NCBI GenBank assembly: GCA_043745805.1
Contig: JAYTSD010000029.1
Location: 16,835-80,834 of the forward strand
Reading direction: 5' to 3'
DNA length: 64,000 nt
Source of the DNA: Fibrobacteria bacterium
GTDB lineage: Bacteria; Fibrobacterota; Fibrobacteria; UBA11236
Shown: positions 16,160 to 44,171 of the stretch, in pieces
Numbering within the stretch: the stretch's first letter is position 1
How the letters are laid out: the number at the start of each line of letters is the position of its first letter
The notes under the pieces: generated by a model
What the model was told of the DNA's origin: nothing
The model's input: the letters and a program-made list of their open reading frames with translations, nothing else
The model's database searches: none
Translations under genes and position numbers: made by a program

Positions 16160-16450
16160 ATGCCGTTGCTAATGCTTAAACTTTTATTTGTCATTACCTC
16201 CTTAAGCTTGCAAGCTAAGTATTCTCCATTATACACTACGCCAACTCCTATTGCAGAGGATTCACTCACTACACATAAATTGCACAGCGCCAATATTGCA
16301 AAAGAAGATTCAAACGCTAAATTAAATTTGGCAAATTTTTATTGCGCTTCCGATTCTGGACAGAAAAAATAATGCGAAAATATTTCTGTTACATTTCGAT
16401 ACAATCTATTGCGGCAATGTTTACAACCAGAAAGCATATTTTTTAAATGA
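16160..16450 (+). pseudogene. Possible secreted Sel1-like protein interrupted by TAA at 16370
   Basis: Signal-like N-terminus and DSNAKLNLANFY. The frame continues past the TAA to a TGA overlapping the next ATG. Confidence 0.3.
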
Positions 16451-17007
16451 ATTTATTCCCCGTCCATCCTGAAAAATTAAAGCAATTGATTTTGCATATT
16501 TGTCGTTTGTACAAAGCAAACTCGGCTTTTAACTTAGCGGATCTCGGGAATATTTTATTCTATGCCGATTTTAACCATTTCAAAAACTATGGGTTCCCAA
16601 TTACCGGACAAGCCTATATCAAACAGCTCGATGGCTTTGCACCCACTAGACTGCTGTCACTATGCCAACAAATGCATACGCAAAAAAAAATCAATTTAAG
16701 CTCCTTGCAAACGGCAAGTTTTTCGGCGGTTAAAATTAAGGCTTATACTAATGCAGCTTTAAATTTATTCGATGGACAAGAAATTGCTTTGGTAGATGAA
16801 ATCATTTTTCATTTTCACAAACAAAAATTTATTACGCCACTTTCGCCTCACTATATTGCAGGCACGGAGCTTATTCATCTGCAAGAAGACATCCCTTATT
16901 ATTTGGCTTTGATCGAAAACAAACGTTTTCACCCTAATGCCTATGAAGCCAAATACGCAGAACAATTAAAAACATTAGCGCATCAATCGAGGGTTTTAAC
17001 ATTATGA
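16447..17007 (+). CDS. Panacea (DUF4065/SocA)-domain antitoxin
   Basis: KLKQLILHI...LGNILFYADF...GFPITGQAYIK...G.AP, later LFDGQEIALVDEII and IPY. Confidence 0.8.
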   Translation: MNLFPVHPEKLKQLILHICRLYKANSAFNLADLGNILFYADFNHFKNYGFPITGQAYIKQLDGFAPTRLLSLCQQMHTQKKINLSSLQTASFSAVKIKAYTNAALNLFDGQEIALVDEIIFHFHKQKFITPLSPHYIAGTELIHLQEDIPYYLALIENKRFHPNAYEAKYAEQLKTLAHQSRVLTL

Positions 17008-17303
17008 AATGGAATGTATTAGCCTTACCCAAATTTAATGCGCAATTCGAATTGATAAAATCAAAAATCAGAAGGGCCGATGAGTTTATGGAAGGGGCGA
17101 AATGGATTTTGGAACGTGATGCTTTGCGAGGGGTAACCGTTTGTGAAAACCCGCCGGTATTTGCTTTGGGAATCAATGCCATGGCGGAAAAGACAGCAAT
17201 ATCCGTATACTATACGGTGTCCTTCCAAAATGTTTATTTACTCTCTATTGCTACGTCCTCGGTTAAAATGAATTCTAAAGGTCGTATACCGAGTGAGCTT
17301 TAG
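17004..17303 (+). CDS. Putative toxin (RelE/ParE-like pattern)
   Basis: ATGA-coupled to the antitoxin; beta-alpha-alpha start and SVYYTV...VYLLSI end. Confidence 0.55.
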   Translation: MKWNVLALPKFNAQFELIKSKIRRADEFMEGAKWILERDALRGVTVCENPPVFALGINAMAEKTAISVYYTVSFQNVYLLSIATSSVKMNSKGRIPSEL

Positions 17304-18502
17304 CCAAATTCGGCTTCACCTGAGGATTTTGTTTTGGATTCACTTTTTAGGCGCATAGGTAACAAATACGAAGCTCCAGGCAAACCTCTCCAATCAAAGG
17401 GTTTGTGAGGCAACGCTAAGCTATAACGCAAACGCGGAAAATCTGCGAGCAACCATTGTACAAACCAAGCCATGATATACGAACATCCCGTAACCATAAT
17501 GATGCGAAAAAACAAATCGAATAAAGACACTTCCCAAAAAGCAAACTCAACCCATCGTAAAAAATGCGTGTGAACTAAATATACAAAAAAGGTATACGGC
17601 GCTAAATGCGTAAAGATGAATTGAAAATTTTTATTCGCATAAATGGTTTGCTCTAACCATGGCTTGATTTTTAAAAAAACTAACAAAGATGCGGCACAAT
17701 AAAGCATAATAGACCAACGATTGCAATGATCAATATTCCAAAGCTCTTTACCATAAGCGAGATTAATTTGCACTTCCGCATTGATAAGCGCAAAACAAAA
17801 CAACCAAAAAAGCCAAGCTTGCTTAGGGCTATAACTCTCTACAATTTTTTCAATCCATTCTTGATTCCAAGCCACAAACATTCCTGCATAACAAAAGAAC
17901 CAATGTAAGATGAGCCAGTTAGGATGAAAGTGTAGAGGCGATATTCCTAGGGCATCAGCAAAGGTTTCGCTTGGAGCCATCAACAATAAATGCAAACCTA
18001 AAAATAAAACAAAACATGATTTGGATTTTGCTAAGCGATAAACCCAAGGGAAGATCATATACAACTGAAATAAGACTATGAGGAAATAATATTGATAATC
18101 AAAGCCTTCGAAAAAAACGAAACGTAACACATCGGTTAAGCTGCCAAGAGCATTATTTTTCCAAGGCAAGCCCAAGACATAATCTACATGACGAAAGCTG
18201 GTTATAGCCGTCCACATTAAGAAGGGAACAAATATTTTTAATAAGCGTTTTCGATAATACTGATTTACATCTAAAGGCTTGGAGCTACCGACATATTTAG
18301 CGGTTAATCCAAAACCTGAGAGAAATAGAAAAAGTGGGACCGTGAAACGTGAAAGTTGATCGAGATAAGTCGTGAAATAATTTAAACTCCAAAGTGTTTG
18401 ATTCTTGGCATATTGTTCCACCCAATAATGTACGCTATGCACAACGATCACCGCAATGCTTGCAATAACGCGTAAAAAATCTCCATCTTTTTTGGTGACC
18501 AT
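17300..18502 (-). CDS. Acyltransferase-3 (OafA-like) membrane O-acyltransferase
   Basis: DFLRVIASIAVIVVH, RFTVPLFLFLSGF, YYRKRL, FFVYLVH. Confidence 0.9.
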   Translation of the reverse strand: MVTKKDGDFLRVIASIAVIVVHSVHYWVEQYAKNQTLWSLNYFTTYLDQLSRFTVPLFLFLSGFGLTAKYVGSSKPLDVNQYYRKRLLKIFVPFLMWTAITSFRHVDYVLGLPWKNNALGSLTDVLRFVFFEGFDYQYYFLIVLFQLYMIFPWVYRLAKSKSCFVLFLGLHLLLMAPSETFADALGISPLHFHPNWLILHWFFCYAGMFVAWNQEWIEKIVESYSPKQAWLFWLFCFALINAEVQINLAYGKELWNIDHCNRWSIMLYCAASLLVFLKIKPWLEQTIYANKNFQFIFTHLAPYTFFVYLVHTHFLRWVEFAFWEVSLFDLFFRIIMVTGCSYIMAWFVQWLLADFPRLRYSLALPHKPFDWRGLPGASYLLPMRLKSESKTKSSGEAEFG

Positions 18503-18678: not shown

Positions 18679-21105
18679 TTAGTGTGGAGCGAGCGCTTTC
18701 CCGTTTATCCAAACACGATAGAATTGACCAGGTATAGTTGGTATGCTTTGATGTTTTAGCGACTCGAATTGGCCTGCATCCAATACAGACTCAAAAACCA
18801 CATTGGAGCGCCCCAAACCATCTAAACGAATCACTTTCACTGCTTTAGGTTGCGACCAATCATTTGGCAATAAAAACATTTGCTTTCCCATTTTCCAAAA
18901 ATTATTGCTAACCGTTGGTCTTACAGCAACCGGATGAGCTTCCGTAACAGTCATGTTAACGCGCGCGCGCAAGGTAGTTGTACCCAAAGCTTTAAATCGC
19001 AGATTAAAACTTCCACGCTGTGTATCTTTGGGTGTCCAAATTAATTTGCGACTGCTGGCATCAAAAGTCAAACCCTCCATTACCATGGGTGAGGCATAAA
19101 TATAATTCGCCGCAAGGGCAGGGTTACTCAATCCCACGTTGTATTCGATTTTTTCATCGGATTTCCAATTAATGTGAGTGGAGTCCTGAACCACCAAATT
19201 AGGAAGTGTTTGCAAATAAAAATCCAAACCTTTAGCCATATTCAAACGTCCACCGGTAATCGTTTTATTGGCATAAGCCGGAACTTGCGTGATACCTTCT
19301 AAAGCTTTAGCCCTTGTCCAAGTAATGCCCATTCTATCACAAGCTAATTTATGTAAAGCCACATAAGCTGTAACCAAAGGCGCAGCAACAGAAGTACCCG
19401 AGACAGTAACATAATTGACAGTAGAAGCCAAAGCCGGATCACTCACTTTAATACTAAGGCCATCTATTTTTAAAGCTCTGCCGGTTACCGAAATATTATT
19501 GTTCAACACGGTACGAAAACGAAGTAATATTTTACTTCCTTTATAAGCCTCCAAAGAATAGGAAAGCATGCGCGCAGGCATGATTTTACTGGTCAGCGCT
19601 GCAACCACTTGCCAAGTTGCATTGGGTACATCTTGGCTGGCTTCTACTACTACGTTATCATAAGTGTTGGCAGGCGTATATTCTACTTGGAAGTATAATG
19701 TCGTTCCTTCTTGATTCGTTAAATCAATACTCTTAGCCATGGTCATAGTGGTGTTTTTTCCCGACTTCCAAATAATACATTGAGGAGGATCGATAGGATT
19801 ATCCAAGCTCAATGCAAAGTCTCCGGGATTGGAAAAAACCCATTTGGATAAATCTTCATTGAACCAATCGGACCATAAAATTTTGCGGGCCGGAATATCC
19901 GCAGTGGCCACCATTTCGCCTGGAGCAGCTAAATGCACTACATTTTTTCCATAATTTGAAAAGCCACTTAAAGTGTCCGCAGGTGTGAAAGCCGCTACCA
20001 CTATGGTATTTTCATAGTTATAAGAAATTGGGGCGGGAGTATTGGTGTTAATGTCTAAGCCATTATTACCTGCGGCCACGATGATGGGAATATTTTTATT
20101 TCGCGCTGCGGCAAAGGCATTACGCATAGCAAGAATATCACCGTTACCTCCAATGCTAAAATTAATAGCCATAGCCCCATTATTCACCGCATATTGAATG
20201 CCTCGGGCAATGGCCGCTTGATCGCCATGCCCGCCCGCATCCAAAACCCTCACCGGCATAATTTTCACTTCCGCTAAAACCCCAGTCATTCCCTCTTCAT
20301 TATCAAAATTAGCGGCAATGACAGAGCTTACTACAGTGCCATGAGCCTGATAATCTTGGGGATTATTATCATTATCCACAAAATCCCAGCCTAAAGAATC
20401 ATCGATATATCCATTCCCATCATCATCAATACCAGGCTTTCCAAGCGATTCGGCTTTATTAATCCAATGATGACCTTTTAATTCCGGATGATTAAAATCG
20501 ATTCCTGCGTCGATAACCGCAATGACTAAAGTATCAGCACCAGAAAACTTATCCCATACTGGCTCCACATTAATATCCGCGCCTGCCACAGGTTTAAAGC
20601 CCATAAAAGCTCCGCCAGGAAACGTTTCTCCAGGGTTATGCAAGGCCCATTGCGGACTTTTCGCATACATCGAATCATTGGGAACATAACTGGCAAATGC
20701 GGTAGGAATAGCCTGTAAACTTAGGCCATGTTGTTTGTGAAAATAGTCCGCCAACAAGTTGGCTATGCTTTGACTGGGGGGATTTTTTTTTCCGCCTAAA
20801 ACGCGACGGGCAAAACTTGGAGAAACCACTATTCTAGAACCCTTTAGTGACCAATCCCCAACTTGGCCATTTTCTGCTTGCATGCTTTTTCTAAAAAGCG
20901 TTTTGTCTTGCGAAGCCAAAGCCTCGAATTGTAAAGGTAAGAAGCGAGCCGAATATTCGATATCAGGCTTTTGCAAAGCCTTCTGTGCCGCAGTAAGATT
21001 TACTTGCGAGGATTTGGCTTCACTGAGCTTTGAAGTAATAGTTAAGGTGTAAAAAAAACATACTACTGCGAATAAACTAGGCAAAAATTTACGATTAAAA
21101 GTCAT
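18679..21105 (-). CDS. Secreted S8 subtilase with inserted beta-domain and C-terminal Ig-like domain
   Basis: Triad IAVIDAG / HGTVVSS / GTSVAAP; oxyanion AAGN. Confidence 0.9.
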   Translation of the reverse strand: MTFNRKFLPSLFAVVCFFYTLTITSKLSEAKSSQVNLTAAQKALQKPDIEYSARFLPLQFEALASQDKTLFRKSMQAENGQVGDWSLKGSRIVVSPSFARRVLGGKKNPPSQSIANLLADYFHKQHGLSLQAIPTAFASYVPNDSMYAKSPQWALHNPGETFPGGAFMGFKPVAGADINVEPVWDKFSGADTLVIAVIDAGIDFNHPELKGHHWINKAESLGKPGIDDDGNGYIDDSLGWDFVDNDNNPQDYQAHGTVVSSVIAANFDNEEGMTGVLAEVKIMPVRVLDAGGHGDQAAIARGIQYAVNNGAMAINFSIGGNGDILAMRNAFAAARNKNIPIIVAAGNNGLDINTNTPAPISYNYENTIVVAAFTPADTLSGFSNYGKNVVHLAAPGEMVATADIPARKILWSDWFNEDLSKWVFSNPGDFALSLDNPIDPPQCIIWKSGKNTTMTMAKSIDLTNQEGTTLYFQVEYTPANTYDNVVVEASQDVPNATWQVVAALTSKIMPARMLSYSLEAYKGSKILLRFRTVLNNNISVTGRALKIDGLSIKVSDPALASTVNYVTVSGTSVAAPLVTAYVALHKLACDRMGITWTRAKALEGITQVPAYANKTITGGRLNMAKGLDFYLQTLPNLVVQDSTHINWKSDEKIEYNVGLSNPALAANYIYASPMVMEGLTFDASSRKLIWTPKDTQRGSFNLRFKALGTTTLRARVNMTVTEAHPVAVRPTVSNNFWKMGKQMFLLPNDWSQPKAVKVIRLDGLGRSNVVFESVLDAGQFESLKHQSIPTIPGQFYRVWINGKALAPH

Positions 21106-21340
21106 GCACTAAGTATAAGGGATAAGCCTCAAATAAGCTTTTTGTTTATCCGTCATTTTTATAGAAAATAGGGGAAAACTTTATTTTTTTCGCTTAAGTT
21201 GTACCCAATAAGGCAAGTCATTTCCATTTAATATCTTTTGAATAAAATAATTCGCCTGAAAAACCTTAAATTTGTACAAATTCGACACTTATGACCTCAT
21301 ATTTTCGATTACATTAATTGCAAACTTAAGGGGGTAGTAA

Positions 21341-22060
21341 ATGATAAAAGCGAATTTTCTTCGTTATGGATTAATAGCCGTGATAAGTATCGCAATAGGT
21401 TGTTCTTCGACTAGTCAAATTCACCCTAAAATCCCGAAAACAGATGATTTATTGGAGCTACTAACTGGCTTTGGAGAATCGCTGTCAAAAAAGAATTTCA
21501 CTTTAGCGGCTGAGTATTTGACTCCTGAAGATCGAAATTTATTGATGGATTCGGAAGGCAATGTTCCCGAAGATAAACAAAAACTTTTATTGGCCTTGCC
21601 CTTACAAAAACTTATTCGTCATCCTTCGGTTCATGTGGAGAATGGGCACATTGCCGGCATCTATGCTTTATTGCCTAATACTAAAAGCACTGGCACAAGC
21701 GATGCCGCTGCAGCACCTACCGAAGATTATTCCGGAATAAGTGAAGCCGCAGTTACACCTACTCCTGAAGTCGCCGCAGAAACTTCCGAAGAAACCCCAC
21801 AAGAAGGCAACAATATTGGGAGCAATGCCGAGCTACAGGCAGCCACGAAAAAGTTCTTTTCCGCCTTGCAAAAGAAAAGCTGGACTTCAGCCTTAGCACT
21901 TTTAAATGAAGATGAGAGAAAGTTTTTAACCGATGATAAAGGTCGTATTAAAGAAAGCTCCAAGCAAAGATTATCCCAACTTGATCCCAAGAAAAGTGAG
22001 GGCTTAACTTTGCAAGACGGAAAAATCACCGGCATAACCTTGCTGTTACCTGCGGATTAA
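21341..22060 (+). CDS. Lipoprotein with two copies of an unrecognised ~75-aa domain
   Basis: Lipobox IAIG-C; internal duplication separated by an acidic Ala/Pro/Thr linker. Confidence 0.75.
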   Translation: MIKANFLRYGLIAVISIAIGCSSTSQIHPKIPKTDDLLELLTGFGESLSKKNFTLAAEYLTPEDRNLLMDSEGNVPEDKQKLLLALPLQKLIRHPSVHVENGHIAGIYALLPNTKSTGTSDAAAAPTEDYSGISEAAVTPTPEVAAETSEETPQEGNNIGSNAELQAATKKFFSALQKKSWTSALALLNEDERKFLTDDKGRIKESSKQRLSQLDPKKSEGLTLQDGKITGITLLLPAD

Positions 22061-22079
22061 AAAATATTTTTATTTATGG

Positions 22080-22104
22080 AGGAATGATTTGAAATATCAT
22101 TCCT
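22080..22104. terminator. Hairpin between convergent genes
   Basis: AGGAATGAT-N7-ATCATTCCT. Confidence 0.55.
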
Positions 22105-22820
22105 TATAGATTTTCACTTGCGTTTATCACCAAATTAGCTCCGTTCACATGAGGTGATGCCTCCAATAAATAGGCCACCGCGTCGGCAACTTCTTCTGGC
22201 ATTAGGAGTTTTTTCAAGGGATGTTTTTCAATTAGCATTTCCATCACTCGCTCGTCAATCTCTTCCGTCAAGGCTGTTTTCATTAGTGAAGGGGAAACCG
22301 TATTGGCAGTAATTCCCAAAGCTGCATTTTCAAACGCCCAGGATTTGCTCAAAGATTGCAAATAGGCTTTGGCTGCTACATACTCAGATAATCCCAAGGG
22401 CGGCTGATTAATTAAATAAGATGTTAGTATTGTAACAATTCTTCCAAATTTGGCTGCTCGAAATTGTTTAATGACCGCTTGAGTGATTTGAATTACTGGC
22501 AGAACATTATGAGTAAATCCAGAAGTAAATACTTCCCTATCAAATTTATGAAAAGGCTTTCGAGTTAATCCAGTAAAAGCATTATGAATCAGGCCTTGTA
22601 ATTCGAAGGAGGGGATTTCCGCACATAAAGCCGCTACGGATTTCGCATCAGTGAAGTCACAATATACAGTGCTTAAATTGGAAAATTCATTCTGCAAGAG
22701 CAGAGCAGTATGTTCAGAACCATGATAAGTTAAAATGATTCGATGAGTGGGATCTTGCAGCAGTTTTCTAGTTAATGCCAAACCCAATCCAGAAGCGCCA
22801 CCCGTCAAAAGTATATTCAT
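22104..22820 (-). CDS. SDR-family (FabG-like) oxidoreductase
   Basis: TGGASGLG, HNA, YVAAK, NTVSP. Confidence 0.9.
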   Translation of the reverse strand: MNILLTGGASGLGLALTRKLLQDPTHRIILTYHGSEHTALLLQNEFSNLSTVYCDFTDAKSVAALCAEIPSFELQGLIHNAFTGLTRKPFHKFDREVFTSGFTHNVLPVIQITQAVIKQFRAAKFGRIVTILTSYLINQPPLGLSEYVAAKAYLQSLSKSWAFENAALGITANTVSPSLMKTALTEEIDERVMEMLIEKHPLKKLLMPEEVADAVAYLLEASPHVNGANLVINASENL

Positions 22821-23209
22821 GGCAATAACCCCACACTGACTTTGCCTTTAGCTAAACGCTTCCCATGCGAATCCTTGAATTCAAATAAAAATTCCCAAAC
22901 ACCAACAGATTCAAAAAAACCATCCACTACGGCATTCAGAATTATTGGTTCCGCCAAATAAACGGGTTTAAGATATTTTATCTCCTGTGAATGAATAATC
23001 ACATTTTTAATTGGCAAGCCTTCGCCTACAAAATAGGACAAGAATCCACCAAGAATATTTCCATGCATCACCTTTCCAGCGAAGCCTTTGGATCTAGCAT
23101 AATCGTCGTCCACATGTAGCGGATTTCGATCGGCAAAAGTATCGATGAATTTTTTGTGTAAGTTGGCATCCACTAAAAACTCTTGGATAAAAGAATCACC
23201 TTGCTTCAT
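22817..23209 (-). CDS. MaoC-like hot-dog dehydratase
   Basis: DRNPLHVD...VMHG hydratase motif. Confidence 0.9.
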   Translation of the reverse strand: MKQGDSFIQEFLVDANLHKKFIDTFADRNPLHVDDDYARSKGFAGKVMHGNILGGFLSYFVGEGLPIKNVIIHSQEIKYLKPVYLAEPIILNAVVDGFFESVGVWEFLFEFKDSHGKRLAKGKVSVGLLP

Positions 23210-23451
23210 ACCGGAATTTTCATCGCAATAATTTTACACATGTCACCCACATTTTTGAATCCTTGAATTTCGCTTGCCATAAATCGGATTTTGAAATGTT
23301 TTTCGATTTCTACCACTAGTTGAATATGTGCTAGAGAGTCCCATTCTTCATAATCCGCGGCAGTTGTACCGCTATGCAAAACAATATCCTTACGATCCAA
23401 TACATCAATAAAAATATCTTTAACCTGTAGCATAATTTCGGGAATGCCCAT
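23206..23451 (-). CDS. Acyl carrier protein
   Basis: WDSLAHI phosphopantetheine site. Confidence 0.93.
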   Translation of the reverse strand: MGIPEIMLQVKDIFIDVLDRKDIVLHSGTTAADYEEWDSLAHIQLVVEIEKHFKIRFMASEIQGFKNVGDMCKIIAMKIPV

Positions 23452-23452
23452 T

Positions 23453-25165
23453 TTATACCTCTTTGATAAAATTTATTTTAGGAATAAAGTCGCTTAACTG
23501 AAGTGTCCAAAGTAGCTTGTCTTTAACAAAACCAAGATCGGCATAAAAATCTTTTACCATTCCATTCTTCGCTGTAGGAATGTATTCTCCGGATAGATGC
23601 GTGCAGCCGGCTGCTTGAGCAAGGTTAGCCAAATGATTCAGTACAAAAGTTTCCATTCCGCGTTTGAGAACACGACAACTCATAAACCAACTATGAATAA
23701 AAGCCTCATTTTTATCGATTCGCAAAATACCTACGCTAACTAATCCATAATCTCCAAACTTATCTTTAAGCGTGAAGGCGGCAGTTCGGTAGTCTAATGA
23801 TTCTGCCAAATTTTTTGCTTCCTCTTCCGTAAAGCGAATAGTGCGAAGATTAAATTGATTCGACCGTTGACTCAACTGTGCAATACGGGGAAGATTAAAA
23901 ACGCGGAAAGTTTCAACAGTAGCCTCCAAATTTAGACCTTGCAAATAATCTTCTTCCGTAATCGCAGTAACCTGCAAATTCTTTCGCGAGATTTCTTCCT
24001 GATAGAATTGCGTACGAGACCGGTCTTCAGCGGTAAACGATGAGGACTCAAACAAATTTAAATTCTCTAAGTAACTTATGTATTCAGACGGGTCCTCTGG
24101 CAATTCCGGAACGGTAACTTCGGGAAGAAGTTGACGCACTAGATTTCGTTCAAATGGACTATCATCCAAAAATACCATCGAGTCAAAACTCAAATTTAAA
24201 TTCTCTTGAATACGACGAATATTCTCTGCCTTATTCTCCCAGTTAGCCACAAAAACGGCTATGTCTTCTAACTTTAGGAGCATGTCAGGGTGGTGTAAGA
24301 ATGGCTCTCTCGCAACGATCTCATCATTTTTGCTGCATATGGCTAGGATTATTCCCCGAGCCCGCAAATCGCAAACCCAAGCTTGAAATTGCGTAAAAGC
24401 TTTTCCAACCCCTAAGTTACCCATCTGAATTTTTTCCAATCCATCTTCCCCGATAATGCCGCCCCACAGTGTATTATCTAAATCAAGAATCAGAACCTTT
24501 TTCGCTCCTCCCTCCATCGCCATAATAATTGAAACTAAGTTACGTGCTAAATCGGGGAGAAAATCTGGAGCGAAAGCCATATCTGCATGAATATAATATC
24601 GCGGAGATTGACAAAACAAGCTTCCCTTAGATCCTTGCAAAGAAGCCACGTCATTGACATAAATGCCTTCGGTATTCCGTGCGGCATCCATAATTCCCAG
24701 GTTTATTTTTCGGAGCTGATAGAGAAAAGAGAGATCTGTTTTATTTGCAAAATTTCCAAAAACAGAATCCCCACTTTCGGGAAAATTACTTTGTAGGATA
24801 CGCGCTTGGGTATGCAGAGTCAAAGCCTGCCATAAGGTCTGCATGAAATCTAAATAGGTTTCAGCAAAGCCACTGCGTGCTTCTTGGGGCGTTGCCATAA
24901 ATCTAGCTTTCAATTTTTGAATGCAAGGAAGTAATACGGCATAGTCGGCGGCAAATTGATGAAAGTCTGATCGCGAATCCAAAATTTGCATTTGGGTTTG
25001 ATCGTAAGCTTCGAATATTTCGAAAGAGAATCCCAATCCATGGCCATAACCACGAAGGGCTTTTCCCAGCAACTGAGTAGAGCTATCGGCCAACAGAGCG
25101 ACCTTTCGAATCCGGAGACCGGAAAAATCCTTCTTAAGATTTTTAACCAATAAGTTCAGTTCCAA
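23453..25165 (-). CDS. fkbH: FkbH-like HAD-IIIC glyceryl transferase/phosphatase
   Basis: LDLDNTLWGG, CSKND, FLDDSPFER, RSNQFNL, MSCRV. Likely TTG start at 25165 after GGAG (the track starts at 25258). Confidence 0.92.
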   Translation of the reverse strand: MELNLLVKNLKKDFSGLRIRKVALLADSSTQLLGKALRGYGHGLGFSFEIFEAYDQTQMQILDSRSDFHQFAADYAVLLPCIQKLKARFMATPQEARSGFAETYLDFMQTLWQALTLHTQARILQSNFPESGDSVFGNFANKTDLSFLYQLRKINLGIMDAARNTEGIYVNDVASLQGSKGSLFCQSPRYYIHADMAFAPDFLPDLARNLVSIIMAMEGGAKKVLILDLDNTLWGGIIGEDGLEKIQMGNLGVGKAFTQFQAWVCDLRARGIILAICSKNDEIVAREPFLHHPDMLLKLEDIAVFVANWENKAENIRRIQENLNLSFDSMVFLDDSPFERNLVRQLLPEVTVPELPEDPSEYISYLENLNLFESSSFTAEDRSRTQFYQEEISRKNLQVTAITEEDYLQGLNLEATVETFRVFNLPRIAQLSQRSNQFNLRTIRFTEEEAKNLAESLDYRTAAFTLKDKFGDYGLVSVGILRIDKNEAFIHSWFMSCRVLKRGMETFVLNHLANLAQAAGCTHLSGEYIPTAKNGMVKDFYADLGFVKDKLLWTLQLSDFIPKINFIKEV

Positions 25166-25357
25166 AACGGCTCCAAGAGGCGGGGAGAAACGGTAACTCG
25201 CAAACTCCCATGGAATGCTGATGGATTCTAACATTTCCGCGTTTCCATTTCTACACATTCCTGCTATTCAGGAATTTTTTCCAAGTCTTTTCGAATTAGG
25301 TTGCTCATAGGATTTTCAATTGATAGAATGTGAAGCAATGCCTAAGATGGAAAGTCC

Positions 25358-26644
25358 ATGAGAATACCCCACACGCCCATTGGAAACGCCAAGGTTACCT
25401 CAAAAAATACTCGCGTTCTCTCTAAAACTATTGTCATGAATCAAGGCGATCCAGTCTTAAATCAGGAATCCATGGAGCTCTTAATTCAGTCCATTTTAAA
25501 TATTCCTAACCTTACCTCTTCTGAAATACCCTTGATTGAATTCTTGCAAACAAATACTCAATTCCTAGCCTCGCATCAATCCGTCTCTATGGGAATTGCC
25601 GAGTACGTCATGAAAAAATCGAGCGCTAACGTCGATAGCCAAAACCAATTGAGAGTTCTTGAAACCATACGTCAGCATGATCAAGAGACTTCCGAAAATT
25701 TCATGGCATACTATCCAACAGGAAAAGAAAATACCCAAGGAGTTTTTTGGCCCGATCCAACCTTAAAACGCGGGGCCCGAAATATCTTTAATGAAATTCC
25801 CGCAGCGAAAAAATTTAAGATCATCGATAAGCAAACACCTATCGGATCTGGCGGCTGCTGTTATCAAATGTGGATTGCCTATAATCTCCAAGCAGAAAAT
25901 TTCAATTATGTTGTTACAGAACCTGATCCGAATGCCCAAAATGGCCTAAGTCCAGCCTCCGCACGCTGGGGCATACTTTTCAATTCAGCCACCTACAAAC
26001 AATTGTTGGAAAAAACCTTTGAAAACTTAATGTTACCTAGACTCCTCTGGAGTACCCAAAGCAAGGGTAAAACACTTTATTGTGATCCATTCCGTGAGGA
26101 TGTGAACTTCGAATCCATCGAAGAATATGAAGAAAATTATTATCGACACACTGAACTTGCTCGAAAAGCCATGATGAAAATGAAAGTATTCGTTATGACC
26201 TTGGGGATGAATGAAGTGTGGTATTTGCGTGCAGGAGGAGCCGCTTTATCGCGATGCCCATGGGGCCTTTCTTCCTCTCTGCTAGAAAAACGCACTTTAA
26301 CCGTTGAGGAAAATATTGCCAATCTTCAGGGTATGTTAAACGTGTGGCGCAAGTATAATCCCGATATCAAAATTATCGTAGCGGTATCACCTGTTCCCGA
26401 ACATGCAACCTTTCTAGCGGAAACTCAACATGTGATTTGCGCTAATTCTTTAGGTAAATCTATTCTCCGAATTGCCGCGCAAGAGTTTTGTGATCATAAT
26501 GAAGGTGTTTATTATTATCCGGTCTATGAATCGGTAATGCACTGTACCGAAAAACCTTGGGATGATGATCAAAGACATGTTTCCACCGAAGGAAAAGATA
26601 AAGGTGCGGCATTATTCCACCATATGTTTGTAAAAGAAGAGTAG
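25358..26644 (+). CDS. GSCFA-domain (SGNH-like) protein, Ser-to-Cys variant
   Basis: PIGSGGCCYQ (for GSCFA), VFVMTLGMNEVW, VSPVP, AN..GKSILR, YYPVYE, DQRHVS. Confidence 0.8.
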   Translation: MRIPHTPIGNAKVTSKNTRVLSKTIVMNQGDPVLNQESMELLIQSILNIPNLTSSEIPLIEFLQTNTQFLASHQSVSMGIAEYVMKKSSANVDSQNQLRVLETIRQHDQETSENFMAYYPTGKENTQGVFWPDPTLKRGARNIFNEIPAAKKFKIIDKQTPIGSGGCCYQMWIAYNLQAENFNYVVTEPDPNAQNGLSPASARWGILFNSATYKQLLEKTFENLMLPRLLWSTQSKGKTLYCDPFREDVNFESIEEYEENYYRHTELARKAMMKMKVFVMTLGMNEVWYLRAGGAALSRCPWGLSSSLLEKRTLTVEENIANLQGMLNVWRKYNPDIKIIVAVSPVPEHATFLAETQHVICANSLGKSILRIAAQEFCDHNEGVYYYPVYESVMHCTEKPWDDDQRHVSTEGKDKGAALFHHMFVKEE

Positions 26645-26671
26645 TGGTTTTACTCTTATCGACTTGATAAC

Positions 26672-27823
26672 CTATTTCGAACTAAATAAAACAATCAACA
26701 ATAAAGCTGCACCAGCCATGCCTCCAACGGTCCACCACAAAAATTGATTGGCTTTTTTGGAAACGGGTTCTTCTTCATTGCCTTCTTCATCAAAATTGGT
26801 TTTGGGTGCGGGTTCAGCGGCTTTGGAGCCGCCGAGTAATGGTAAAGTCATGGCATACGTTAAAGCGTCATTTTTTTTCACGACAAATGATTTGCAAAGG
26901 TTTTGATAACCAGGGCTTGATCCGCAAACTTCATGCTTGCCCGGATTTAAAGGGAAGCGAGGCGTATTACTTCCCATGGTCGTGCCATCGATAGTGATAA
27001 GGGCGCCGGTAGGAATTAGGGAAAGATTAAGCCAAGCGGCTTCTTGCTCTTGCAGAGCGCGTGCGAAATCACCTAAACCGGGACTCAATAATTTATCATA
27101 GGCTTTAGCGAATACTTTTTTAAGATTAGTGCTGGTGCCGCTTTCTAAATCGTATAAAGTAGCGGTTAAAGTAAAATTCGTATCAATTTGATCTAAGCTT
27201 ACGGTTAAAATTTTATCGGTTGTTAACCGCGAGGCTACGTCCAAAATGCATTCTTTATTTTCACATTTTTCCGAAGTAACGCGCTTCTTTTCCAAAGTTT
27301 CCTCAACTGCATTTCTGTCTAAGGTGTGAAAAATGGGTAAAGATTGTAGTTCGGCAATTAGTTGTCGAGTGAGTCCTGCCTGATCTTCGGGGCGCAATGC
27401 CTTACCATAAATATCCATTACGGCTAAACTTGGGATTAAAGCTTTGCCTCCCTTTTGGGCTTGTACTTCTTTTTTGATTTTTTTGAAATGTACTAATTGA
27501 CTATTACTCGCATAGGTATCATGAATAGAGGCAAAAGGATCTAATTCGAAAAGACGGAAAAATAATTTGTCTGCTTCAGCAATTTTCTTGGGATTTGACG
27601 AACAAATCACACCTAAATTTTTAAAGATGTAGACACTGTCTTGAAAGGTTAAATCCTTTTGTTTCTTTAAATAACTACGCAGAATCTTTTCTGCTTTACC
27701 GACCTCCCCTTCGGATAAATTATTATCAACTAATTTACGATCCACCACCTGTGCAGAAACCAAACAGGCAGAGCCAAGCAAACAAAGTAAAGCGAGCGAA
27801 GAAAGCCAAAGTAGTTTTTTCAT
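26672..27823 (-). CDS. Exported PEGA-domain protein
   Basis: Signal peptide, TPR-like helices, CsgG/TolB-N-like middle with C..KEC, PEGA (PTGALITIDG...G.H...PGY), C-terminal TM. Confidence 0.7.
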   Translation of the reverse strand: MKKLLWLSSLALLCLLGSACLVSAQVVDRKLVDNNLSEGEVGKAEKILRSYLKKQKDLTFQDSVYIFKNLGVICSSNPKKIAEADKLFFRLFELDPFASIHDTYASNSQLVHFKKIKKEVQAQKGGKALIPSLAVMDIYGKALRPEDQAGLTRQLIAELQSLPIFHTLDRNAVEETLEKKRVTSEKCENKECILDVASRLTTDKILTVSLDQIDTNFTLTATLYDLESGTSTNLKKVFAKAYDKLLSPGLGDFARALQEQEAAWLNLSLIPTGALITIDGTTMGSNTPRFPLNPGKHEVCGSSPGYQNLCKSFVVKKNDALTYAMTLPLLGGSKAAEPAPKTNFDEEGNEEEPVSKKANQFLWWTVGGMAGAALLLIVLFSSK

Positions 27824-27937
27824 AATTTATTTCTCCCGAAACAAAAATCGTCTCAAAATGTCGAGGTATATAGTAATTTTTCACTCTGAGAATGTCCAAC
27901 ACTCAGGTTGAGAAACTCTTTAAAAAAACGAGTCTTT

Positions 27938-28870
27938 ATGCTAAAAATGCTTATTTCATTTTCAATCCTTGTGCTTTCCTTTACGCTTGCTTTTTCTGCG
28001 CCCATGACCATAAAACCCAGCAATGCTTTTCTCGATTATTGGAAAAGTGGGTTAGCTGAAATCTCCTCATATCAAGTTAAAACTGAAAGGTATGGAGAAA
28101 TGCGGGAGGGGCAGGAAGTCATGATTTTTGTGTACGAAGAAATCAATGCGGATACACGCATTAAAGTGGAAAGCGACAAAACGCCTGTGAGCAAGCAGGT
28201 TCCGGTATTAAAACTCAATCATGTTTTAAAATTTAATACTGGCATTTATGATTATTCAGTATTAACTTCGGTGTTTACCGGACTCGCTGGCCAAAGTGTA
28301 AAACGTCCCTTTGATCCCCAAAAAATTTCGCTGACGGCACAAGAATGGTGTGGTCATGTTTATCATAGTGTAGAGCCGCATAAAAGTGGAATCGTCTCGG
28401 AAATACATTCTTATTTCGAAAAAGAAGGTAACACGAAAATAACTCTGCCTTTTCCAGTGGGAACACTTTATTATGAAGATGAATTTCCCATTTTATTTCG
28501 TGAACTCGATGGGGAGTTTTTAAAAACTGGAGAAAATCTTAAGTCTACAGTATTGCCAAGTTTATGGCTGACGCGTAAAAGACATCAACCCTTAACTTTG
28601 GCCAAAGCAGAAATTCACAAAGAAAAAACAACTTTACCGCTCCAAAACAAAAATTGGGAATGCTTCAAATGGACAGTGGAATTATCGGGAATTAAAACGG
28701 AGTATTGGATAGAAAAAGATTTTCCGCACAAGGTTTTAGCTTGGAAAAATTCAGTGGGTGAAAGTGGTGAGTTGATTAATAGTCTGCGTAAAACCTATTG
28801 GGCATTAAATCACAATAAAGATTTAGGGTTGCGCAAAGAGCTGGGCTTGCATTATGGTTTAGGTGACTAA
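27938..28870 (+). CDS. Conserved exported hypothetical protein
   Basis: Signal peptide; YW..G.AEISSY, RYGE.R.G, KFNTGIYDYS, QEWCGH, SYFE.EG. The track starts at 27908. Confidence 0.7.
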   Translation: MLKMLISFSILVLSFTLAFSAPMTIKPSNAFLDYWKSGLAEISSYQVKTERYGEMREGQEVMIFVYEEINADTRIKVESDKTPVSKQVPVLKLNHVLKFNTGIYDYSVLTSVFTGLAGQSVKRPFDPQKISLTAQEWCGHVYHSVEPHKSGIVSEIHSYFEKEGNTKITLPFPVGTLYYEDEFPILFRELDGEFLKTGENLKSTVLPSLWLTRKRHQPLTLAKAEIHKEKTTLPLQNKNWECFKWTVELSGIKTEYWIEKDFPHKVLAWKNSVGESGELINSLRKTYWALNHNKDLGLRKELGLHYGLGD

Positions 28871-31578: not shown

Positions 31579-32823
31579 TTAATCCGTGGAAATTGGTACA
31601 GGCCCAAGTTTTTCCCAAACATAAACTAGACCCAATGCTAGAATGGGAACTAGAGGGAAAACTTGCCTTGGAATAGCGCTCAAGAGGGATAAGCCCGTTA
31701 AGCTAATTCCTGCAAAAAAGGTCAAAGCCATCATTTCTGCGGATACTTTATGGCGGGCAATAATTACGCGGCAAACGCCAAAAAACCACATGAAAAATAT
31801 AGCAGCGTAGATTAAACTACGATTTCCAGTTGTGAGATCGGTATCCGCATTTGGATAGTTTGAAATGGGATATCCAAACACCATGCGATTAATATTTGCT
31901 CTCCAATTTTGGAAATATTTTTGCGGGTGATTCTTTATATTTTTTTTTGCCACCTGTTTAAAGCGGGCATCTCTCTCTAAACAATTCATAGTGGATAATT
32001 CCTTAAATAAGGGCTGTAACTCGCAAAAAAAATCTGGGTAACCGATAACGGCATCAAAGTTTAACCAGTCTCCTAAATATTTTTTTTCAGGTAACGTCAT
32101 GCAATACACTTGCTGTCCTCCTGAATTTCCCCAATAAAATATTTTGCCAGTTAATTTGTAAGTGTATCCAAGATAAGGAAGACAGATCAGTAAACCAAGT
32201 AATTGCGCGATAGCAAAACGCCGAAAGGCTATCCTCTTTAACACCATTCCTATAAACCCCATAAGCAGGAATCCGAATAATAAAGTATAGCCGAAAAAAA
32301 CTTTGGTTAAGGCTAAATAACCTAGGTAAAAAGATAAGGTCAAAAAATGTTGAATCCAATTTGGAGAGGCTGATAAATCTTTTTTACAAACTTTTATCCC
32401 ATGAAAACAAATGCCGGAAACTAAAAATACCGATAAACACTCCGGCATTATAAATTCCATTAAGGAACCATGAAGGCATAAATATATTCCTAGAACAAAA
32501 GCAAAAATCAAAGCTTTTCGTGGGGTAACATAAATAGCCGATGCCAAGCCAAAATAATATGCTGCTCCATAAAGCAAAAATGCATTTAAGATTTTTGCCC
32601 AAAACCAAGGAATATGCAACAATGCAAAGGGATATAATAAAAATGGATAACCCGGCCCATTCCACAAATACAAACTTTCGGTGGAAGCATAAAAACCATG
32701 AGTTAAATTTTGGGCACAAATTATATAAGTTCCCTCATCCCATTGAAAACCAGTTTTCGAGTGCCAGCAAACAAAAATGAGATAAATCACTAAAAGAGGT
32801 AAAAGCTTAAATGCCATTTTCAT
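31579..32823 (-). CDS. GT-C fold (PMT/ArnT-like) membrane glycosyltransferase
   Basis: WDEGTY after TM1, PGYP, many TM helices. Confidence 0.7.
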   Translation of the reverse strand: MKMAFKLLPLLVIYLIFVCWHSKTGFQWDEGTYIICAQNLTHGFYASTESLYLWNGPGYPFLLYPFALLHIPWFWAKILNAFLLYGAAYYFGLASAIYVTPRKALIFAFVLGIYLCLHGSLMEFIMPECLSVFLVSGICFHGIKVCKKDLSASPNWIQHFLTLSFYLGYLALTKVFFGYTLLFGFLLMGFIGMVLKRIAFRRFAIAQLLGLLICLPYLGYTYKLTGKIFYWGNSGGQQVYCMTLPEKKYLGDWLNFDAVIGYPDFFCELQPLFKELSTMNCLERDARFKQVAKKNIKNHPQKYFQNWRANINRMVFGYPISNYPNADTDLTTGNRSLIYAAIFFMWFFGVCRVIIARHKVSAEMMALTFFAGISLTGLSLLSAIPRQVFPLVPILALGLVYVWEKLGPVPISTD

Positions 32824-42797: not shown

Positions 42798-44171
42798 TCA
42801 ATTTATGGTGGAGGTTGCCCATTGTGTAGCGACCATATTTTCCATAAATAACACCGAGGAAAATGTTTCAGGCTCGGCCTTTTTTAAATGCGCCGAAAGA
42901 TCTTGGCCATTGCAAACATAAGAGACCGGGATTTTTGAATGCACGGTAAGATTATATAAGTTACCTAAACTGATACATTCATCCAGTTTAGTAAAAATCA
43001 AACGCGAAGTTCCTAAAGGTCTAAAGTCTTCAATGGTTCGAGCTAATTCCTTTCCACGAGTATGCGCGCAAAGCGTGAGATGAATTTCATGCGGCTGAGT
43101 TTTTTGAATCAAATTTTGTAAATCTTGCAAAAGATCTTTATGTGCAGGACCACGTCCCCCGGTATCAATAAGAATGTATTCACAATCTTTTAATTTTCTC
43201 AAGCCTTGTATAATATCTTCATCATTAAATAAGGTTAACATCGGTATCCCTGCGGAATGGGCAAAAACTTTTAACTGTTCTGCCGCACCCATGCGATAAG
43301 CATCCGCTGATAAAATTCCAACTTTTTTTCCTTTTTCAAAACGCAACTGCACTGCGAGCTTAATTAAAGTGGTCGTTTTACCTACACCCGTAGGCCCCAC
43401 TAACATTATTTTATATGGCGTTTTTAAATTGTGCTTGGATAAATTCGACGCCCCATTTAATGCCGTTCCATCCTGAGCACCTGTATAGGCATTTAAAGGC
43501 AATACGGGAATTTGTTGCGCCATAAATTTAATTAAAAGCTCGTGACATTTTTCCAAATTCTTTCCCTGCCAAGGAGGTAACACAGAAGCTAACTTGTCAA
43601 TTAATGCGAGGGCTAAATCTTTATCAATATCCATTTCCAACAAACTATCCAATACCGTTTGAAAAGCACCGAGTGACTCTGGCGCAATGACGGAAGCGCT
43701 TTCACGAGCAGGGCGTAATAAATCCACTGCAGTAACCATGTTTTTAATCTCATCGCGCAACATTTTTAGTTCTCGTGTAGGTAACTCCACACTTTGTCGA
43801 ACTTCTTTAAATTCAGTTTTCATAGTCTCTAACCATTTTGCCATTTCTGTATCTGGCTTCACGTTATTGGCCTTGGTATTTAAAATCGGTTCGATTTTTT
43901 TATCCATAGGTTGTCCATTACTGTCGAAGCGACGAAGGCTTCCTCTCCAATCATAAGTGCTAGGAGGTGTTTGCGGTTTTTCGGGCATTGGTGGCTTCGC
44001 ATAGAGTGACTCTTCTAAACCTGCAGTAACCTCTATCATCTCCCAAATTTTGCCTAAATTTTTCTTTTGCACTTTTTTCGATTTTAAAATAATCGCTTCG
44101 GGACCTAATTCTTCCTTAATGCGCTGCAGCACTTCCTGCATGGTGTCAGCCTGATATGTTTTCATTTTCAT
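42798..44171 (-). CDS. flhF: Flagellar SRP-type GTPase FlhF
   Basis: MKTYQADTMQE, GPTGVGKTT, DAYR, DTGGR, TKLDE, GQD. Confidence 0.93.
   Translation of the reverse strand: MKMKTYQADTMQEVLQRIKEELGPEAIILKSKKVQKKNLGKIWEMIEVTAGLEESLYAKPPMPEKPQTPPSTYDWRGSLRRFDSNGQPMDKKIEPILNTKANNVKPDTEMAKWLETMKTEFKEVRQSVELPTRELKMLRDEIKNMVTAVDLLRPARESASVIAPESLGAFQTVLDSLLEMDIDKDLALALIDKLASVLPPWQGKNLEKCHELLIKFMAQQIPVLPLNAYTGAQDGTALNGASNLSKHNLKTPYKIMLVGPTGVGKTTTLIKLAVQLRFEKGKKVGILSADAYRMGAAEQLKVFAHSAGIPMLTLFNDEDIIQGLRKLKDCEYILIDTGGRGPAHKDLLQDLQNLIQKTQPHEIHLTLCAHTRGKELARTIEDFRPLGTSRLIFTKLDECISLGNLYNLTVHSKIPVSYVCNGQDLSAHLKKAEPETFSSVLFMENMVATQWATSTIN

Follow-up and report, generated by a model that had tools for sequence, protein, structure and literature searches.

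FkbH-type proteins load glyceryl units onto acyl carrier proteins (ACPs), and in trans-AT polyketide synthases (PKSs) such as those for bryostatin (BryA) and FR901464 the combination of dehydratase, ketoreductase, FkbH and ACP provides a lactate starter. FkbH is described as a glycerate loader in the available part of PMC10143770. A second kind of system, which we call ACP-fed MBOAT cassettes (FkbH-ACP-MaoC-(SDR)-MBOAT-partner), occurs in glycan loci (L043, L049, L050, L075, L078, L079 and L015 in our survey) and resembles the Dlt D-alanylation pathway; a literature search found no paper on such cassettes with FkbH. A 2022 review (PMC9487903, available part) covers the carbohydrate-active SGNH acyl esterases and transferases, with the CE3 acetyl esterases, Axe2, PatB, OatA and Ape1, and lists GSCFA as a family without known activity or structure. 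One GSCFA protein, PipG, belongs to the PipDFG acetylation complex of the pseudotetraivprolide cluster of Pseudomonas entomophila; according to the available part of PMC12828459, it is required for a final O-acetylation that follows hydroxylation by a dioxygenase, and Cys47 of its motif is important in vivo.

The window analysed here is a stretch of 64,000 nucleotides from a Fibrobacteria bacterium. Within it, a single lineage-specific insert of 4.54 kb occupies positions 22104-26644; it consists of two divergently transcribed units and lies between convergent backbone genes. Four minus-strand genes, encoding FkbH, ACP, MaoC and SDR proteins, span 22104-25258, and a GSCFA gene on the plus strand occupies 25358-26644. 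The SDR/MaoC and MaoC/ACP reading frames each overlap by 4 nt and a 1-nt gap separates ACP from FkbH; the four genes are therefore translationally coupled. The ORF coordinates leave a 99-bp intergenic region (25259-25357) common to the operon and GSCFA, bearing out the tightly coupled operon and divergent GSCFA gene of a preliminary description of this DNA. Promoter-like hexamers are present on both strands of this region, yet are not commoner there than in shuffled sequence.

Both flanks are conserved backbone and lie outside the module: a lipoprotein gene on the left (21341-22060, plus strand) and, on the right, a gene for a PEGA-domain protein (26672-27823, minus strand; Pfam PEGA, 8.3e-06) whose orthologues are 44-53% identical within the family. 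Orthologues of these two genes are direct convergent neighbours, with gaps of ~40-450 bp, in 8/8 relatives examined that have both, and the backbone order is conserved as AT3-S8-lipoprotein on one side of the junction and PEGA-320aa-ParA-MurA on the other. Only this genome, compared with those eight relatives, carries the five genes in between, which therefore constitute one lineage-specific insert. The insert is barely atypical in composition (GC 0.405 versus 0.40 for the genome; dinucleotide signature at the 91st percentile), so acquisition of all five genes in one event is not established. A permissive site may have taken up two insertions instead, the genus being represented by this single genome. 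The stretch adjoining the lipoprotein gene varies among relatives, with an extra 2.2-2.4 kb in L236 and L238.

The FkbH-like loader (601 aa; 23453-25258) comprises an FkbH_N domain (Pfam, 2e-49), a HAD-IIIC phosphatase and a C-terminal Cys domain. It matches NCBIfam TIGR01686 with 295.3 bits (cut-off 146.65), and residues 39-409 match PDB 3slr (BF1531; 6.8e-108); the gene is single copy in the genome. The DLDNT and MSCRV motifs noted previously are present at residues 259-263 and 526-530, and at least 95% of 62 aligned homologues retain D259/D261/T263 and C528. The dedicated ACP (81 aa; 23206-23451; PP-binding, 1e-06 in Pfam) carries W37-D38-S39-L40-x-H42, invariant across 16 aligned FkbH-linked ACPs. 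The MaoC-type single hot-dog dehydratase (130 aa; 22817-23209; PF01575 MaoC_dehydratas, 6.7e-07) scores 29.4 bits in Pfam against a cut-off of 27 and carries D-R-N-P-L-H, which we take to be a hydratase-2-type motif. The operon's last gene encodes an SDR, a FabG-like ketoreductase (238 aa; 22104-22820; Pfam adh_short_C2, 7.6e-30, and KR, 1.8e-09), with TGGASGLG near its N-terminus plus Y-V-A-A-K. Judged from these intact catalytic motifs in all four proteins, FkbH-ACP-MaoC-SDR chemistry is plausible.

No ketosynthase, condensation, adenylation or MBOAT domain and no KAS III gene was found among the 53 window ORFs scanned, in agreement with the earlier statement that the window holds no PKS, NRPS or MBOAT gene. 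The flagellar cluster reported nearby is present (42798-57958), but the GT-C genes reported with it could not be substantiated, no glycosyltransferase family having a match among the same 53 ORFs; an eight-segment membrane protein is encoded at 31579-32823, with no family assigned by match. The acyltransferase-3 (AT3) gene at 17300-18502 (Pfam, 1.2e-29) is also real, but it is a conserved backbone gene that cassette-free relatives also have, and so is not a dedicated acylation partner, the role proposed for it as an alternative to GSCFA.

Pattern-based scans, which are samples rather than exhaustive surveys, provided 80 FkbH loci, 73 GSCFA genome loci and 54 GSCFA metagenome loci among the matches listed; the window's own proteins served as co-occurrence queries, and a neighbourhood distance of 8 kb was used for MBOAT, nonulosonic-acid genes and PhyH. 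ACP homologues occur in 52, MaoC homologues in 22 and SDR homologues in 12 of the 80 FkbH loci listed, and this co-occurrence in related loci exceeds chance. MBOAT genes, which typically come directly after the ACP gene, lie within 8 kb in 44/80 FkbH loci listed and in 15/22 of those also having MaoC, consistent with the earlier generalization that stand-alone FkbH/ACP sets usually go with an MBOAT. The best same-order relative (50% FkbH identity) has MBOAT-x-rSAM-FkbH-ACP within a glycosyltransferase locus.

These frequencies favour an explanation in which the cassette feeds an MBOAT encoded elsewhere, esterifying an extracytoplasmic polymer in a Dlt-like manner, and GSCFA, next to it but unrelated, uses a different donor, e.g. 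acetyl-CoA. The preliminary description had named an MBOAT partner elsewhere as a point against its own reading; the genome has five MBOAT genes, all on contigs other than the window's. Four are followed by a gene for a 308-372-aa partner, and these four MBOATs share 38-44% identity with MBOATs that accompany FkbH in other loci, a similarity that need not place any of them in an FkbH-linked clade. However, none of the five is near the cassette. One lies in a complete ACP-MBOAT-SGNH-ligase set (C45:148-4554) that, with an AMP-binding loader of its own, appears to need no outside supply. No carrier protein is encoded near the other four, which look like typical AlgI/PatA-type pairs. An MBOAT outlet would also leave the arrival of GSCFA in the same insert unexplained, and we consider it somewhat unlikely.

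The same loci bear on whether a glycan is decorated at all. The cassette might instead serve to build a starter unit, a lipid head group or some small metabolite, or be a decaying remnant; its position beside GSCFA would then reflect separate, independent insertions of the two at a permissive site. The closest FkbH homologues among the loci listed (45-49% identity) do occur in mixed contexts, L004 and L010 standing alone beside housekeeping genes and L011 lying in a PKS cluster, and the variable lipoprotein side of the insert would fit a permissive site. Nevertheless, the four operon genes are intact, the window ORFs scanned offer no synthase to take up a starter, and glycosyltransferases, flippases or deacetylases mark most FkbH-related loci as glycan loci; we regard this explanation as very unlikely.

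The GSCFA-family protein (428 aa; PF08885, 7.8e-36), also encoded by a single-copy gene, is predicted to consist of an extra helical N-domain (residues 22-120) and an SGNH-fold domain. The structure model (pLDDT 79.8) gives VIA-align Z scores of 12.6-13.4 over 181-183 aligned residues, 13.4 being to GDSL esterases. Across 22 sequences, S164, G166, C168, D404 and H407 do not vary, and aligned-range offsets equate C168 with the catalytic serines of 5b5l (Ser10) and Axe2 (Ser15), and D404 with Asp191 of Axe2. In the model, C168, D404 and H407 occupy the SGNH triad positions and the invariant Cys168 replaces the usual catalytic serine; the structural alignment here agrees with the earlier placement of a Cys at the nucleophile position. 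A sequence scan detected no signal peptide and no membrane or hydrophobic segment, so that the protein, predicted to be cytoplasmic, could encounter an ACP.

The linkage of FkbH and GSCFA, which had been expected to be conserved, is not. GSCFA was found in 0/80 FkbH loci listed (blastp and subfamily HMM, E up to 10), and FkbH or an FkbH-type ACP in 0/73 genome and 0/54 metagenome GSCFA loci listed. The two occur together in 0/40 relatives, six of which have FkbH-like genes and two GSCFA. Since this GSCFA subfamily has no private ACP in the other loci, its usual donor is something else.

Nevertheless, the FkbH cassette and GSCFA each connect independently to nonulosonic-acid sugar loci. The usual home of the GSCFA subfamily is in such loci (sialic/pseudaminic/legionaminic-type), with a PhyH-like dioxygenase: 33/73 genome and 8/54 metagenome loci listed have a NeuB, PseB or CMP-transferase homologue within 8 kb, and 16/73 and 22/54 have a PhyH homologue within that distance, versus 0/80 FkbH loci listed for PhyH; five of nine longer GSCFA homologues are GSCFA-PhyH fusions. 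This genome's own nonulosonic-acid island is on another contig (C8:230240-248369) and encodes a 662-aa protein with a PhyH-like domain (homologues in 47/127 GSCFA loci listed), a large protein (homologues in 17/127) and a GNAT. Around FkbH, homologues of NeuB, PseB or the CMP-transferase are rare (3/80 loci listed). In the same-family relative G012, a cassette of hexapeptide acyltransferase, ACP, MaoC-SDR fusion, FkbH-like gene and ABC transporter directly adjoins PhyH-like, GNAT, NeuB, CMP-transferase and PseB genes in the orthologous island, whose NeuB is 79% identical to that of this genome; the FkbH-like protein is only ~30% identical to the window's. The glycan target suggested earlier, possibly flagellar, is reasonable in the light of the island and the context of the GSCFA subfamily.

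Even on a shared glycan, the ACP need not donate directly to GSCFA. Another soluble transferase, e.g. the C8 island's GNAT or an enzyme encoded in the C6 glycan locus, could draw on the lactyl- or glyceroyl-ACP, with GSCFA separately O-acetylating a hydroxyl made by the PhyH-like dioxygenase. The lack of a private ACP for GSCFA in 127 listed loci fits such a division of labour, as does the G012 cassette, whose partners are a GNAT and a hexapeptide acyltransferase rather than GSCFA. PipG-type proteins are tied to acetylation (PMC12828459, available part), and a DUF4910 protein of the C6 locus is 41-42% identical to DUF4910 proteins beside FkbH cassettes in L012 and L033. Against this, GSCFA is the only transferase that arrived with the insert, and the C8 GNAT, of a kind also found beside NeuB in G012, looks like an ordinary pathway N-acetyltransferase. 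We think this arrangement unlikely.

Alongside the observed genes, motifs, insert and neighbourhood statistics we set, tentatively and with somewhat less than even confidence, a reading in which lactyl-ACP is the product of the cassette and a nonulosonic-acid glycan receives the acyl group through GSCFA. By analogy with the FkbH mechanism and lactate-starter logic, FkbH would draw on 1,3-bisphosphoglycerate for a glyceryl unit, with the phosphate removed by its HAD domain and the acyl group carried on Cys528, and would load this unit onto Ser39 of the ACP. The MaoC dehydratase would remove the 3-hydroxyl to give pyruvoyl-ACP, which the SDR would reduce to lactyl-ACP. Cys168 of GSCFA may then accept the three-carbon acyl group for transfer to a hydroxyl on the sugar or on its side chain, possibly one introduced by the PhyH-like enzyme, so that both units would decorate the glycan made by the C8 island. 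The insert, unlike those 44 of the 80 related loci listed, has no MBOAT in cis, and GSCFA sits where a transferase would be expected; on the other side stand the usual MBOAT outlet and the genome's five MBOATs. Of the acyl-transfer system first proposed, the cassette chemistry is plausible, the Cys-SGNH protein is upheld and the glycan target is reasonable, but the linkage is not conserved and MBOATs exist elsewhere in the genome. The joining of a three-carbon acyl pathway to a member of a poorly understood enzyme family suggests, though it does not prove, a novel mode of surface-sugar decoration.

Like the trans-AT PKS lactate starter, the locus has an FkbH with a HAD-IIIC DxDxT and a C-terminal Cys, a dedicated carrier protein, and a dehydratase and ketoreductase encoded with the loader. 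In contrast, its proteins are discrete rather than PKS domains, its dehydratase is a 130-aa MaoC hot-dog and not a PKS DH, its FkbH has the extra FkbH_N domain also present in 3slr, and, with no ketosynthase in the window ORFs scanned, its product would go to a transferase and not a synthase. It shares four gene families with the ACP-fed MBOAT cassettes, in an order identical to that in L012 and L011, but has no MBOAT or partner in cis and has GSCFA at the expected transferase position; its FkbH belongs to a strong FkbH_N branch, whereas MaoC-linked Firmicute cassettes score ~1e-13. PipG, as described in the available part of PMC12828459, is likewise a GSCFA protein with a functionally important motif Cys that acts after a dioxygenase, as the pairing with PhyH-like enzymes parallels here; however, its substrate is a peptide natural product and not a sugar, its acyl donor is not an FkbH-loaded ACP, and it needs PipD and the Ser-SGNH protein PipF, nothing similar to which flanks the window GSCFA gene. 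Finally, the protein modelled here shares with the carbohydrate-active SGNH enzymes their esterase/transferase fold (Z 11-13.4) and nucleophile, Asp and His positions, but differs in its Cys nucleophile, its extra helical N-domain and its predicted cytoplasmic location.

The insert at 22104–26644 consists of five genes, all intact and assigned from Pfam and NCBIfam, that form two divergent units. The minus-strand unit comprises SDR (22104–22820), MaoC (22817–23209), ACP (23206–23451) and FkbH (23453–25258) genes, whose successive junctions are a 4-nt overlap, a second 4-nt overlap and a 1-nt gap, so that they are translationally coupled. The plus-strand unit is a single GSCFA gene (25358–26644), separated from the start of FkbH by 99 bp. 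A promoter and terminator scan of 20900–28000 showed no excess of promoter-like sites (19, as compared with 16.3 ± 4.3 in shuffled sequence).

FkbH belongs to TIGR01686 (295.3 bits, cut-off 146.65) and contains an FkbH_N domain (PF21211; 168.6 bits, cut-off 27). Its HAD motif I, D259-L-D261-N-T263, and the C-terminal M-S-C528-R-V are both intact, each being present in at least 95% of 62 aligned homologues; residues 39–409 match PDB 3slr, the uncharacterised Bacteroides fragilis protein BF1531 (6.8e-108). The possibility that FkbH_N is a built-in SGNH transferase was ruled out, because no Ser or His in the domain reaches 80% conservation among the 62 homologues. The ACP gene adjoins FkbH and encodes a W-D-S39-L motif that is invariant across 16 FkbH-linked ACPs, while the MaoC motif D-R-N-P-L-H and the SDR motifs TGxxxGxG and YxxxK are intact. 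The genes for a lactyl-ACP pathway are therefore all present: a dehydratase and a ketoreductase with intact catalytic residues, coupled to FkbH and an ACP.

FkbH enzymes load glyceryl from 1,3-bisphosphoglycerate onto a dedicated ACP, and the lactate starter of polyketide synthases (PKS) provides the precedent for further processing. FkbH would accordingly transfer glyceryl from 1,3-bisphosphoglycerate to the cassette ACP, and glyceryl-ACP would be converted by the dehydratase to pyruvoyl-ACP and then by the ketoreductase to lactyl-ACP. Because the motifs are intact, the module is recurrent and both the chemistry and the PKS precedent are known, we think it probable that the cassette yields a three-carbon hydroxyacyl-ACP, most likely lactyl-ACP.

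The GSCFA protein is a clear member of PF08885 (124.4 bits, cut-off 25), with no signal peptide or membrane segment. An AlphaFold model built on a 22-sequence alignment (mean pLDDT 79.8) comprises a helical N-domain and an alpha/beta domain, the latter having the SGNH fold (Foldseek, VIA-align); the best match was 8ik1_A (Z 13.4, rmsd 3.6, 181 aligned residues), followed by CE3 esterases, Axe2, PatB, OatA and Ape1. A search of solved structures with a GSCFA-alignment profile returned nothing but designed helical proteins, none better than E 0.025. C168, D404 and H407, which provide the motif Cys and the D-x-x-H block of the family, are invariant in the 22 sequences. Judged from the starts and ends of aligned ranges rather than residue by residue, C168 would fall on Ser10 of 5b5l and Ser15 of Axe2, and D404 on Asp191 of Axe2. 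Where the family has G-S-C-F-A, the window protein has G166-C167-C168-Y-Q, so that a Cys–Cys pair (residues 167–168, at 25856–25861) replaces the Ser–Cys of its 21 aligned relatives and the consensus S167 is Cys. Prediction of a complex between GSCFA residues 140–428 and the cassette ACP scored 0.01 against a mark of 0.32; the run had no controls and counts neither way on binding.

A 2022 review of SGNH proteins lists GSCFA as a large family of 1242 members, for which it gives neither an activity nor a structure (PMC9487903). Within the literature searched, functional data on the family come from 2025 PipDFG genetics alone. In that system hydroxylation by a dioxygenase comes first, and the final O-acetylation depends on three proteins, PipF, PipD and the GSCFA protein PipG, whose motif Cys47 matters in vivo (PMC12828459).

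The boundaries of the insert are defined by its flanks. Orthologues of the PEGA gene (26672–27823) occur across the family, and in eight relatives (G009, G015, G002, G013, G019, G041, G017 and G005) the PEGA orthologue directly adjoins that of the lipoprotein gene (21341–22060), the two being convergent with gaps of ∼40–450 bp. The wider order, AT3-S8-lipoprotein on one side and PEGA-320aa-ParA-MurA on the other, is also kept in relatives. The 4.54 kb between the lipoprotein and PEGA genes, exactly 22104–26644, is found only in the window's genome, which indicates that the FkbH operon and GSCFA together are a self-contained divergent unit, new to the lineage. Its composition is mildly atypical (GC 0.405 as compared with 0.40; dinucleotide signature at the 91st percentile), too weakly so to date the insertion or to tell one event from two; a single acquisition of five genes would be the simpler reading.

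The same comparison bears on AT3. The preliminary description had proposed that the cassette makes lactyl- or glyceryl-ACP and that either GSCFA or AT3 then acylates a sugar or glycan. The AT3 gene is real (17300–18502), but it is present in relatives without the cassette, and is thus conserved backbone and not a dedicated partner; an AT3 homologue was present in none of the 80 FkbH loci listed. Just upstream of AT3, 16447–17303 holds a SocA/Panacea-domain antitoxin-like gene (186 aa) that overlaps a family-less 99-aa ORF by 4 nt. These may be a toxin–antitoxin pair; in the relatives examined, the syntenic regions held no match to either.

A scan of 53 window ORFs bore out the earlier statement that no PKS, NRPS or MBOAT gene is present, and the flagellar cluster is likewise real (42798–57958). 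‘GT-C genes’ had also been described, and these were not confirmed, because no glycosyltransferase domain was found in the 53 ORFs. The gene so named is probably that at 31579–32823, whose product (414 aa) has eight predicted membrane segments but matches no family; in the relative G013, an orthologue (37% identity) holds the same position.

Conserved linkage between the two units was sought in both directions. GSCFA was absent from all 80 FkbH loci listed, even when searched for with a subfamily HMM allowing E values up to 10, and neither FkbH nor an FkbH-type ACP was detected by blastp and FkbH HMM in 127 GSCFA loci (73 genome, 54 metagenome). A single-protein search with the window GSCFA had returned no relative; the GSCFA loci came from an alignment-based scan. 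Among 40 relatives, six (a tally that takes in the unpublished genome G021) have FkbH-like genes and two have GSCFA, with no overlap. The pairing is thus not conserved (0/207 loci; no co-occurrence in 40 relatives). The window's own genome, moreover, has five MBOAT genes, on contigs C24, C47, C39, C21 and C45, so that ‘MBOAT-less’ holds for the window and not for the genome. Both findings that had been set beforehand as counting against the initial proposal, an unconserved linkage and an MBOAT elsewhere, were therefore obtained.

FkbH loci themselves were collected by a scan of genomes, with 80 matches listed and up to 8 kb taken on each side; neighbours were counted with the window proteins or a seed HMM as queries. 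An ACP was near FkbH in 52 of the 80 loci listed, MaoC in 22, SDR in 12 and MBOAT in 44, including 15 of the 22 MaoC loci. This bears out the view that an MBOAT is the usual outlet of FkbH/ACP sets that stand alone. In 12 loci scanned with Pfam, the typical gene order was FkbH-ACP-MaoC-MBOAT followed by a ∼370-aa protein, within glycan loci. The best relative from the same taxonomic order (FkbH 50% identity) has, with FkbH, genes for GT2, GT4, MBOAT, a protein of 316 aa, a B12-radical SAM enzyme, ACP and methyltransferases. The FkbH cassette is widely recurrent in glycan loci; the literature searched on such cassettes yielded natural-product papers and none on the cassettes themselves.

Two variants were observed among these loci. 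In L043, L078 and L079, FkbH-ACP-MaoC-MBOAT-partner cassettes lack SDR and have, by Pfam, an aldo/keto reductase directly downstream in all three, which may replace the ketoreductase. In L004, L010 and L006, from Ruminococcus/Oscillospiraceae MAGs, the FkbH proteins are the closest to the window's among the matches listed (45–49% identity), yet are solitary, beside amidase and tRNA-modification genes, and the 8 kb on either side hold no ACP, MaoC or MBOAT gene; in this branch, FkbH-like proteins may have a role that requires no private carrier protein.

Since MBOAT delivery is usual, an MBOAT of the same genome could serve the cassette in trans. Four of the five MBOAT genes are followed by a gene for a 308–372-aa partner. 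None lies on the window's contig, however, and the partners of the four MBOATs other than that on C45 have no homologue in the FkbH loci listed (at 1e-5). We regard action in trans as possible but rather doubtful. The fifth MBOAT belongs to a complete Dlt-like set at the very start of C45 (148–4554; L170 and beyond), with an 85-aa ACP, an SGNH/DUF1574-like protein and an AMP-binding ligase. This ACP is of the same type as FkbH-linked ACPs (39% identical to the window ACP); the set is not needed as a missing half of the cassette, because it has its own AMP-binding loader.

The GSCFA loci point to a particular class of sugar. A NeuB, PseB or CMP-transferase homologue lay within 8 kb in 33 of 73 genome loci (NeuB alone in 28) and 8 of 54 metagenome loci, as compared with 3 of 80 FkbH loci listed; a PhyH-type dioxygenase homologue lay within 8 kb in 16/73, 22/54 and 0/80, respectively, and five of nine longer homologues were GSCFA–PhyH fusions. 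Pfam scans of 24 loci also showed DegT aminotransferases, methyltransferases, sulfotransferases, GT2, GT41-TPR proteins and, once, FleQ. On the basis of the NeuB/PseB/CMP-transferase and PhyH neighbours, the window's GSCFA subfamily is an accessory of nonulosonic-acid glycosylation loci.

The window GSCFA is itself neither adjacent nor fused to any of these; the PhyH-like gene and NeuB of its genome are on C8. There, an island at 230240–248369 (L243, L244) encodes PseB-like, RmlD-like, NeuB, GNAT, two oxidoreductases, SDR, CMP-transferase, a 418-aa protein, a 662-aa protein and three large glycosyltransferase proteins (878, 731 and 784 aa), two with TPR repeats and one with homologues in 17/127 GSCFA loci. 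The C-terminal half of the 662-aa protein is 31–38% identical to PhyH proteins that adjoin GSCFA, or are fused to it, in other loci, and its PhyH-like part has homologues in 47/127 GSCFA loci and in 0/80 FkbH loci listed; its N-terminal 330 aa match no family. It was found by tblastn with a GSCFA-linked PhyH; a PF05721 search of the genome gave nothing, its controls being also unmatched. PhyH-like homologues occur in 7 of 40 relatives, G021 included. Given this island, the window GSCFA is a detached member of the nonulosonic-acid set, by homology and not by position.

A second link comes from G012, a genome of the same family, in which a PhyH-like gene lies ∼2 kb from an FkbH-like gene. The locus (L245; C1:441000–460900) consists of two convergent operons, one with DUF4910, formyltransferase-like, hexapeptide acyltransferase, ACP, MaoC-SDR fusion, FkbH-like and ABC transporter genes, the other with PhyH-like, GNAT, NeuB, RmlD-like, CMP-transferase and PseB genes. 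Its ACP matches the FkbH-type ACP profile (E 7e-14) and its NeuB is 79% identical to that of the window's genome. In this family, then, an FkbH-type cassette sits inside the orthologous sugar island, where it is accompanied by a soluble transferase but by no MBOAT. The FkbH-like protein is only ∼30% identical to the window's, and hence this is analogy of arrangement, not orthology. Nearby are a transposase fragment and a gene for a sulfotransferase.

DUF4910 may regularly accompany FkbH cassettes. In the window's genome, a long minus-strand glycan-type cluster (C6:36317–53088) has an AMP-binding enzyme, two AsnB-like amidotransferases, an ACP (FkbH-type profile, E 2.4e-08) and a DUF4910 protein that is 41–42% identical to those beside FkbH cassettes in L012 and L033 and 39% to that of G012.

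Co-insertion, and the independent link of both halves to sugar loci, give about an even chance that the two units serve one glycan-decoration process. That they instead make a non-glycan product, or adjoin by chance, we consider very unlikely. The best single reading, which we hold tentatively, is direct hand-off from ACP to GSCFA Cys168 and on to a nonulosonic-acid glycan. This is the simplest completion because the cassette arrived with no other transferase. It is also in keeping with a Cys-SGNH enzyme in the cytoplasm and with G012, where the equivalent role falls to a soluble acyltransferase, although the 0/207 loci lend it no support from conservation. G012 would also suit another soluble transferase acting on the same glycan; as none came with the cassette, we think this unlikely. 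More specific than direct hand-off, and correspondingly more speculative, is the proposal that GSCFA proteins are cytoplasmic Cys-nucleophile SGNH acyltransferases and that here a private FkbH-ACP-MaoC-SDR set feeds lactyl or glyceroyl via Cys168 to a PhyH-made hydroxyl of a nonulosonic-acid sugar. If true, glycan O-acylation would here follow a soluble route that is fed by a carrier protein and independent of MBOAT, and the GSCFA family would have its first donor–acceptor assignment.

In conclusion, the gene families are known; what is new is that here they form a discrete, MBOAT-free insert together with a GSCFA gene, that the GSCFA subfamily is tied statistically to PhyH-like dioxygenases and to nonulosonic-acid loci, and that FkbH-type cassettes are linked at family level to the same sugar island. 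The insert is small and could be deleted or moved as a unit, providing a compact test bed for both the GSCFA and the FkbH-cassette questions, and the tie to nonulosonic acids and PhyH yields a testable model in which sialic-acid-like sugars are first hydroxylated and then acylated; such sugars are important in flagellar assembly and surface recognition.

The arrangement differs from each of the systems it resembles. In a Dlt-like system an MBOAT and an extracytoplasmic partner are encoded with the loader and ACP; no MBOAT is present on the window's contig, C29. The MaoC and SDR proteins are other enzyme types than the DH and KR domains of the PKS lactate-starter system. PipG is encoded with PipF, a Ser-SGNH partner, and PipD, whereas the window GSCFA is flanked by FkbH and the PEGA protein; nevertheless, the order of hydroxylation then acylation described for PipDFG (PMC12828459) is echoed by the pairing of the GSCFA subfamily with PhyH-like dioxygenases.
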